From the NCBI RefSeq assembly GCF_055900595.2, contig NZ_CM148325.1: 64,000 nt of DNA. The stretch is one strand, 5' to 3'. Shown piece by piece: positions 25,908 through 28,943 of this stretch. Under the pieces are notes generated by a model. It did no database searches and had not been told where the DNA came from. It was given only the letters and a program-made list of their open reading frames with translations. Each line of letters opens with the position of its first letter. The first letter of the stretch is position 1. A program made the translations under genes and the position numbers.

Positions 25908-27458
25908 TTATACCGTAAACCCTAACATCATCCCCGTATCTTCATGCTCCAGCAGATGGCAGTGCGCCATATATGCATGTTCTTTCGGTGCGTCGTGATT
26001 AAACTTCACCAGGACTTCGCTGACATTACCTTCTACCTTAACAGTATCTTTCCAGCCTGCGCGATGCGTCGCTGGCGGTTTGCCATTTTCTGACAAGATA
26101 CGGAACTGCGTACCGTGGATATGGAACGGATGCAGCATCATGTCGCCCACGCCAGAGATAACCCAACGTTCGTACTGCCCTTTCGCCGCCGCAAACATCG
26201 GCTTGTTCATATCAAACGCCTGACCGTTGATTTTATTGGCATGGTGGAAATCGAACTTCCCGCCGTGGTTCATATGATTCATATTGCCGTGCCCCATATG
26301 GCCCATCATCTGGCTGTGATCCATCCCGGCCATCGCCTGATCGCCATATTTCTCCATCAGCATCTGCATACCCATCATATCGAGCATCGGGTCCATAGAG
26401 AGTTGCAGCTTGCGTACCGTCAGCCCTTCCAGCGAAGGTAATGCTGGCAGGCTACTTAACGCGTCAGGTAAGGCACCTGAAGCACTAATGGAAATCGGCT
26501 GGATCCGCATTACCGGATGCGGCTTGTCAAACGGTGCAATTGCCATTCCCATCTGGCTGACCGGTAGCGTCACCAGATCAAAGGGTTTGTTGTCGTTAAC
26601 CTCCACCAGCACTTCAAAACGCTCACCCATCAGCACCGGTAGCTCGCTCACCTTCACCGGTTCAGGTAGCAGACCACCGTCGCTGGCAATCACATACAGC
26701 GGGCGATTGTCACTGGTAGCGAAATTGAGCGAGCGGGCGTTACAGCCATTGAGCAAACGCAGGCGCAGCCAGCCGCGCGGGGCGGCGTGTTGCGGGTAGA
26801 TAGCACCATTGGTCAGCAGCGTATCGCCAAACCAACCCACGGCAGCGGTCATCACATCCAGTTGATAATCAATCTGGCCGTCAGCGTTAAATTTCTTATC
26901 CTGAACAATCACCGGGACATCATCAATACCCCACTGTTTTGGCAGCATTAATTTTAGAATCTCGTCATCTTCAATCACTACCAGCCCCGCCAGCCCCATC
27001 GCCACCTGTCGCCCGGTTTTGCCATGTTGATGCGGATGGAACCAGCAGGTAGCGGCAGGTTGATCAACGTTCAACGTCACCGTACGCTTGCCACCTGGCG
27101 GAATAATTCCCTGCGGGCCGCCGTCGACCTCACCCGGTACTTCCAGCCCGTGCCAGTGCAACGTCGTTTCTTCCGTCAGTTGGTTATAGATATCAACCGT
27201 TACCGCTTTGCCGCGCTGTAATTTCACCGCCGGCCCCAGCAGATTGCCGTTATAGCCCCAGGTAGTTGCCGTTTTCCCGCCAAAGGTGGACTGACCTGTG
27301 CCAACAGTTAACTGAATACGATTGCGGGCATCAGTCGTGAGCAAATCAGGGATCGGTAACGTTGGACGCTCCGCCGCAAATACTGCGCGGCTCCACAGCG
27401 GCAAGGCTGAAGCTACGCCCAGCGCAATGGAATATTTCAAGAAATCACGACGTTGCAT
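25908..27458 (-). CDS. cueO: Multicopper oxidase CueO (Tat-secreted cuprous oxidase)
   Basis: 516 aa from [10 protein letters not shown]... (twin-arginine signal); copper-binding HxH motifs; Met-rich insert ([14 protein letters not shown]...[14 protein letters not shown]). Confidence 0.9.
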
Positions 27459-27503
27459 AGTTATTTCCTTATTCTTAAGCAGGCGAAACAAAATCAAACG
27501 TTG

Positions 27504-27534
27504 AGCATAGTCCTTCCCCTTACGGGAAGGTCAA
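27504..27534 (-). promoter_or_regulatory. MerR-type promoter with a CueR operator: -35 TTGACC, 19-bp spacer containing the dyad CCTTCCC-N5-GGGAAGG, -10 TATGCT
   Basis: Read on the minus strand as TTGACCTTCCCGTAAGGGGAAGGACTATGCT, about 45 bp upstream of the cueO ATG. Confidence 0.6.
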
Positions 27535-27623
27535 GCCGCAGACACAATTTAATCAACAATAATGGTCGTCGCCTCGCTCGCAGTGTGCTAACGTTTATCT
27601 TCTTTAAGCCCCTGGTAGAAGCA

Positions 27624-27971
27624 ATGAAGACGTTTTTCAGAACAGTGTTATTCGGCAGCTTGATGGCCGTCTGCGCAAACAGTTACGCGCTCAGCGAGTC
27701 TGAAGCCGAAGATATGGCCGATTTAACGGCAGTTTTTGTCTTTCTGAAGAACGATTGTGGTTACCAGAACTTACCAAACGGGCAGATTCGTCGCGCACTG
27801 GTCTTTTTCGCCCAGCAAAACCAGTGGGATCTCAGCAACTACGATACCTTCGACATGAAAGCCCTCGGTGAAGACAGCTACCGCGATCTCAGCGGCATCG
27901 GCATTCCCGTCGCTAAAAAATGCAAAGCCCTGGCTCGCGATTCCTTAAGCCTGCTTGCCTACGTCAAATAA
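27624..27971 (+). CDS. yacC: Small secreted protein YacC (PulS/OutS pilotin-like family)
   Basis: 115 aa starting at the ATG at 27624 with signal peptide MKTFFRTVLFGSLMAVCANSYA. The upstream part of the track ORF has no coding character. Confidence 0.8.
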   Translation: MKTFFRTVLFGSLMAVCANSYALSESEAEDMADLTAVFVFLKNDCGYQNLPNGQIRRALVFFAQQNQWDLSNYDTFDMKALGEDSYRDLSGIGIPVAKKCKALARDSLSLLAYVK

Positions 27972-28076
27972 TCCCTGATACCTTTTTGTAGAAATATTGA
28001 CCGTGCATCCGCGGTCAATGTTAGCTATTATGTTGCGCCCTTTTTTTACGGGTGTTAACAAAGGAGGTATCAACCC

Positions 28077-28943
28077 ATGGCCGAAAAAAAACAGTGGCAT
28101 GAAACGCTACACGACCAGTTTGGGCAGTACTTTGCTGTAGATAACGTTCTGTATCATGAAAAGACCGATCACCAGGATCTGATCATTTTTGAGAACACTG
28201 CATTTGGTCGCGTAATGGCGCTGGATGGCGTAGTACAAACCACCGAGCGCGACGAGTTTATCTATCATGAGATGATGACCCACGTTCCGCTATTAGCCCA
28301 CGGTCACGCGAAACATGTGCTGATTATCGGCGGCGGCGACGGTGCCATGCTGCGTGAAGTGACCCGACATAAAAACGTTGAGTCAATCACGATGGTGGAA
28401 ATCGATGCGGGTGTCGTGTCGTTCTGCCGTCAGTATCTGCCCAACCATAACGCAGGCAGCTACGACGATCCGCGCTTTAAACTGGTGATCGACGATGGCA
28501 TCAATTTCGTTAATCAAACCAGCCAGACCTTTGATGTCATTATCTCCGACTGCACCGATCCTATCGGTCCCGGCGAAAGTCTCTTCACATCAGCATTTTA
28601 CGCAGGTTGTAAACGCTGCCTGAATCCTGGCGGTGTCTTCGTCGCACAGAACGGCGTCTGCTTTTTACAGCAGGAAGAAGCCATCGACAGCCACCGCAAA
28701 CTCAGCAATTATTTTAGCGATGTCGGCTTTTATCAGGCGGCAATCCCGACCTATTACGGCGGCATCATGACCTTTGCATGGGCGACAGATAACGACGCCT
28801 TACGCCATCTCTCAAGCGAAATTATTCAGGCGCGTTTTCTCGCTTCTGGCCTGAAATGCCGTTATTACAATCCGGCAGTCCATACGGCAGCTTTTGCCTT
28901 ACCTCAGTATCTGCAAGACGCACTGGCCTCACAGCCGTCCTAA
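28077..28943 (+). CDS. speE: Spermidine synthase
   Basis: 288 aa, [19 protein letters not shown]...; conserved GGGDG motif. Confidence 0.95.

Follow-up and report, generated by a model that had tools for sequence, protein, structure and literature searches.

CueR, a Cu(I) sensor of the MerR family which binds its core on the side of the DNA facing away from RNA polymerase (PMC8169799, PMC5329002), is the activator of copA and cueO, whose promoters have 19-bp spacers (PMC8169799, PMC5329002, PMC9909328). The protein bends and under-twists such a spacer into the geometry of a 17-bp promoter, and its copper-free conformation is repressing (PMC8169799, PMC5329002). At copA, the CueR core CCTTCC-N7-GGAAGG, the 19-bp spacer, the bending and the overlap with the -35 have been described, and variants of this promoter with the core shifted by 1 bp either way and a spacer of 19 bp are predicted to give weaker or clashing contact between CueR and sigma (PMC8169799). 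It is the CueR target that has been solved by crystallography and cryo-EM, with structures of CueR-DNA and CueR-RNA polymerase available (PDB 4wlw, 4wls, 6ldi, 7c17, 6xh7, 6xh8), and these, together with most of the biochemistry, concern copA and not cueO.

The cueO gene (yacK) of Escherichia coli K-12 has been described as a member of the CueR regulon since 2000 (Outten et al., 2000; Yamamoto and Ishihama, 2005, via PMC8169799; PMC1526738). A candidate CueR site in a promoter with a 19-nt spacer was described for the yacC-yacK divergon (PMC1526738), a PcueO-lacZ fusion is copper-responsive, and CueR is described as having just two target promoters in E. coli, PcopA and PcueO (PMC9396075). CueR binding and cueR-dependent Cu(I) induction have been reported in E. 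coli with a promoter identical to the one presented here (PMC9396075; also PMC8169799 and PMC5329002 citing others), the works cited by the last two being Outten (2000), Stoyanov (2001) and Yamamoto and Ishihama (2005). The cueO promoter resembles those of merT (MerR) and zntA (ZntR) and those controlled by HmrR and GolS in having a suboptimal spacer of 19-20 bp, a dyad between the hexamers and activation via DNA distortion (PMC1526738, PMC9909328). It differs from them in that its half-site is of the CueR/HmrR type and its target is a periplasmic multicopper oxidase instead of an efflux ATPase.

Anatomy of the cueO promoter

The window, that is, the whole stretch of 64 kb that was analysed, has a single match to TTGACCTTCCCGTAAGGGGAAGGACTATGCT, located on the minus strand at positions 27504-27534 and identified by both direct reading and an exact pattern search. 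Read along this strand (27300-27800), the layout is ...ctgcggc TTGACC ttcccgtaaggggaaggac TATGCT caacg..., with the -35 hexamer TTGACC at 27534-27529 and the -10 hexamer TATGCT at 27509-27504. These are separated by a spacer (27528-27510) which counts 19 nt, as opposed to the usual 17 nt. The first-pass annotation of this DNA had given the two hexamers and their separation with exact coordinates, as both direct reading and the pattern search confirm. It had also placed an inverted repeat, CCTTCCC-N5-GGGAAGG, within the spacer. The sequence of this dyad is as it described, with arms CCTTCCC (27530-27524) and GGGAAGG (27518-27512) around the 5-nt centre GTAAG forming a perfect 7+7 inverted repeat. 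Its placement needs amending, however, as the CC with which the repeat opens is also the end of TTGACC; the dyad thus overlaps the -35 by 2 nt and straddles hexamer and spacer instead of lying wholly inside the latter. The predicted CueR operator accordingly spans 27530-27512 on the minus strand, and its core, CCTTCC-N7-GGAAGG, has 0 mismatches to the published one.

The gene downstream, on the same strand, is cueO (25908..27458), whose reading frame begins 46 nt after the -10 and codes for a product of 516 aa with a Tat-type signal (MQRRDFLK). This product matches the multicopper oxidase CueO equivalog NF008205 of NCBIfam over its full length with 979 bits against a cut-off of 525, and the RefSeq annotation of identical DNA likewise names the gene cueO. 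Judging from the position of the -10, the start-site region and 5' leader of cueO would occupy 27459..27503 of the minus strand, with transcription expected to begin at approximately 27499-27494; the searchable literature yielded no mapped start for cueO. The leader carries the motif AAGGA (27471-27467), which lies in a block conserved in orthologues and looks like the ribosome-binding site of cueO.

Divergent to cueO on the plus strand is yacC (27624..27971), coding for a pilotin-like lipoprotein of 115 aa (NCBIfam NF037975, 197 bits), which is treated here as genomic context. The order of genes gcd, cueO, yacC, speE, speD is that of E. coli K-12, read in reverse in the window. The cueR gene itself lies outside the 64-kb window, but 5424 of 5426 complete E. 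coli genomes carry it, and given this near-universal presence the strain in question very probably has it too.

The 31-mer of the promoter is identical to the sequence upstream of cueO in E. coli K-12, and comparison by eye of the yacC-cueO intergenic stretch with that of the K-12 cueO (yacK) promoter shows one substitution in the stretch and no difference in the promoter. Of the 5424 matching E. coli records, 5261 carry an identical (at least 99%) copy of a 41-mer which includes the promoter, and no annotated feature is found at this location. When 601 bp around the site (27250-27850) were compared, matches annotated as yacC and cueO were found in 5424 of 5426 complete E. coli genomes. Over this longer stretch, just 15 E. 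coli records are at least 99% identical and 5351 fall at 95-99%; the small number of close matches shows that the window derives from a less commonly sequenced lineage of the species. The divergence sits in the coding parts of cueO and yacC, the promoter 41-mer being unchanged in 5261.

The first-pass annotation had proposed comparison with the dyad of the copA promoter, which in K-12 reads TTGACC TTCCCCTTGCTGGAAGGTT TAACCT. The two promoters share the -35 TTGACC, the 19-nt spacer, the CCTTCC-N7-GGAAGG core and its overlap with the -35, and are identical at 22 of 31 positions. The register is also the same, as in both the core begins at base 5 of the -35 and stops 2 nt before the -10; this is of consequence given that shifting the core by 1 bp is predicted to disturb contact between CueR and sigma (PMC8169799). 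Differences lie in the -10 (TAACCT at copA, TATGCT at cueO), in the two bases between operator and -10 and in the central 7 nt, which are CCTTGCT at copA and CGTAAGG at cueO, with the result that the cueO dyad is longer by one pair (7-nt arms). The locus thus combines a 19-nt spacer, a dyad overlapping the -35, the CueR core and a register like that of copA with a copper-homeostasis gene downstream.

The full 31-nt pattern did not occur in any of 100 dinucleotide-preserving shuffles, even when 3 mismatches were tolerated. To avoid the circularity of searching with the specific pattern, both strands of the 64-kb window were also scanned for a generic architecture, namely at least 5 of 6 bases of TTGACA, a 19-nt spacer, TANNNT and any perfect inverted repeat inside with arms of at least 6 nt. 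Ten sites were obtained without the dyad requirement and only the cueO promoter site with it; in shuffled windows the architecture occurred at a mean of 0.07 per window, with one or more sites in 13 of 200 shuffles. A chance origin of the 31-nt site is therefore excluded. A loose search of the window for CueR boxes with 2 mismatches allowed, for which 1.87 matches are expected by chance, gave one extra site, CCTTCCAGCGAAGGTAATG (26425-26443, plus strand), which has 2 mismatches to the core and lies within the coding sequence of cueO. It was rejected as being at chance level.

A standard promoter scan of 27200-27900 with spacing of 16-18 nt identified no site on either strand, a result which is expected given the 19-nt spacer of the cueO promoter, and which shows that a canonical alternative promoter for cueO is absent from this region. 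Shortening the spacing to 17 nt from the same -35 would place the -10 at ACTATG, in which both key bases, an A at -11 and a T at -7, are missing. The 19-nt arrangement is consequently the sole plausible sigma-70 promoter upstream of cueO.

Conservation across the Enterobacteriaceae

Scanning for relatives of CueO with one genome per species gave 80 loci across the Enterobacteriaceae, with CueO proteins 74-98% identical. In 79 of these, a CueR-type box is located 60-72 nt upstream of the cueO start codon and the architecture is kept. Column statistics were calculated on the 76 distinct upstream sequences, all of which have a spacer of 19 nt. The -35 is TTGACC in 74 of them and TTGACG in the other 2, its positions 1-5 being invariant, and the -10 is TATGCT in 38, TAAGCT in 36 and another hexamer in 2, with T1, A2, C5 and T6 invariant. 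Counted along the 31-mer, the positions without change are TTGAC (1-5), T8, C10, G18, A20, G22-G23, T26-A27 and C30-T31. Mean column conservation is 0.90 for the 31-mer (0.996 for the -35, 0.92 for the -10 and 0.86 for the spacer), compared with 0.51 and 0.48 in the 30-nt flanks upstream and downstream respectively.

The distance between yacC and cueO ranges from 140 to 200 nt across loci. Insertions and deletions affect about 10 nt directly before the -35 and 11 nt in the leader, with none occurring between the hexamers; since length varies on both sides and the 19 nt are never altered, the length of the spacer itself appears to be functionally constrained. The alignment shows strong purifying selection on both hexamers, on the half-sites and on the length of the spacer.

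Several lineage-specific features were also observed. Relative to most Enterobacteriaceae, Escherichia and some Citrobacter have an insertion of about 10 nt at 27539-27548 and one of 11 nt at 27480-27490, each roughly one helical turn in length, and the 19-nt spacer is intact in their presence. In the right half-site (27512-27518 in the window), GGAGGG is found in 54 of the 76 sequences and GGAAGG in 22, making the perfect dyad of E. coli a minority state, and only 41% of sequences have a complementary seventh pair in the arms (C 27524, G 27518). Dyad-symmetric covariation between positions 9 and 19 of the 31-mer was unconvincing, with a few lineages changing symmetrically and equally many on one side only, among sequences which are phylogenetically non-independent.

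The sole locus of the 80 without a CueR box is that of Intestinirhabdus alba (NZ_WMJZ01000002.1, L076:680-1510), which also has no yacC neighbour. Its cueO product scores 918 bits to the CueO equivalog, and upstream of the gene are a fragment of a chemoreceptor gene and duplicated extragenic repeat elements. The CueR promoter of cueO has apparently been lost in this species through rearrangement.

The yacC side and other readings of the dyad

A second conserved block lies at 27556-27618, between the -35 of cueO and the yacC start at 27624, with a mean conservation of 0.76 over 27565-27618. On the plus strand, TGCTAACGTT (27586-27595), which hardly varies among the 76 sequences from Enterobacteriaceae, resembles an extended -10 (TGn-TAACGT) that would serve yacC. 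Located 17 nt upstream of this -10-like element is TCGTCG (27566-27571), preceded by the A/T block AATAAT (27558-27563), and a Shine-Dalgarno-like motif, GGTAG, is found at 27614-27618 on the yacC side. From these motifs, the block at 27556-27618 is probably a back-to-back promoter and leader of yacC, though a simple sigma-70 scan of 27200-27900 did not call this putative promoter.

With such an arrangement it may be asked if the CueR site is bidirectional, controlling yacC in addition to cueO. The gene adjoins cueO divergently in 78 of the 80 loci, the pair has been named as the yacC-yacK divergon (PMC1526738), and the putative promoters point away from each other, their -35 elements roughly 20-35 nt apart. 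The hexamers flanking the dyad, however, face cueO only, the conserved -10-like element of yacC is about 55 nt away and outside the operator, and the CueR targets are given as copA and cueO only (PMC9396075, PMC8169799). Control of yacC by this site is on this evidence quite improbable.

Still less probable, to the point of being very improbable, is binding of the dyad by another regulator of the MerR family in place of CueR, be it ZntR, SoxR or an acquired GolS- or HmrR-like sensor, as the half-sites are an exact match to the CueR core and the same as those of copA. The operators of ZntR and SoxR have sequences unrelated to this core. A 19-nt spacer with a dyad is a feature common to the whole MerR family (PMC1526738, PMC9909328) and HmrR has a signal nearly identical to that of CueR (PMC1526738), but cueR is near-universal in E. 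coli and cueO is assigned to CueR in the literature (PMC8169799, PMC9396075). Copper induction of cueO is also reported in the literature to be abolished when cueR is deleted.

Lastly, a reading of the inverted repeat as an RNA hairpin (terminator or attenuator) or a chance palindrome with coincidental hexamers has negligible probability: its 7-bp GC-rich stem and 5-nt loop could fold as RNA and are followed on the minus strand, about 20 nt further downstream, by a T-rich stretch, but no gene ends at the dyad, from which region yacC and cueO diverge, a terminator scan had no match there, an Rfam search of 27000-28200 gave no credible match (just two far-below-threshold snoRNA chance matches), and the hexamer spacing of 19 nt is invariant in 76 sequences, chance being expected to give 0.07 sites per window of the generic kind and 0 of the specific kind. 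The dyad is moreover imperfect in most orthologues (GGAGGG in 54/76) with changes that are asymmetric, which would weaken an RNA stem and keep the positions of protein contact. Neither compensatory changes preserving the stem between species nor transcripts that run through the dyad and stop shortly beyond it are seen. The terminator or RNA reading was thus rejected on the grounds of the divergent genes, the null terminator and Rfam scans and the asymmetric half-sites of the orthologues.

CueR control of cueO and its significance

The site at 27504-27534 is almost certainly the sigma-70 promoter of cueO under the control of the copper-sensing MerR-family regulator CueR, and nothing contradicts this reading. 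The first-pass annotation had put it forward as a CueR-type promoter of MerR architecture, a view borne out by the exact CueR core, the identity of the site with that of K-12, the presence of cueO downstream and the published CueR promoters with 19-bp spacers. Its further suggestion that cueO would be copper-induced agrees with the published copper response of the PcueO-lacZ fusion (PMC9396075).

In the mechanism envisaged, a CueR dimer would sit on CCTTCC-N7-GGAAGG, covering the last bases of the -35 and the greater part of the 19-nt spacer. A spacer of this length would hold the hexamers at too great a distance and in the wrong phase for RNA polymerase; basal transcription of cueO would therefore be low, and copper-free CueR would keep it so. 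On binding of Cu(I) (or Ag(I) or Au(I)), CueR would kink and under-twist the spacer, thereby giving the hexamers the geometry of a 17-nt promoter and switching cueO on; the CueO oxidase would then turn Cu(I) in the periplasm into Cu(II), which is less toxic. Published work on E. coli is the source for the binding of CueR, for the distortion mechanism and for the induction of cueO by copper. Outten et al. are said to have reported CueR-dependent transcription of yacK in JBC in 2000. The distortion mechanism as solved at copA would be expected to apply unchanged to cueO, by analogy between the two promoters.

It is unlikely, though conceivable, that the minority half-site GGAAGG and the insertions of about 10 and 11 nt alter the set-point or basal repression of cueO, or couple cueO to the yacC promoter.

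The promoter is thus the known CueR-dependent cueO promoter of E. coli, already described, real but ordinary. The value of its identification is one of annotation and not of discovery, in that it marks the switch which makes cueO copper-inducible, cueO being one of two described CueR targets in E. coli. Invariance of the spacer across the family makes no new finding and opens no new question, but illustrates a known principle of promoters that operate by DNA distortion. The retention of 19-nt spacing in 76 promoters amid flanking insertions and deletions serves as natural confirmation that the length of the spacer is constrained.
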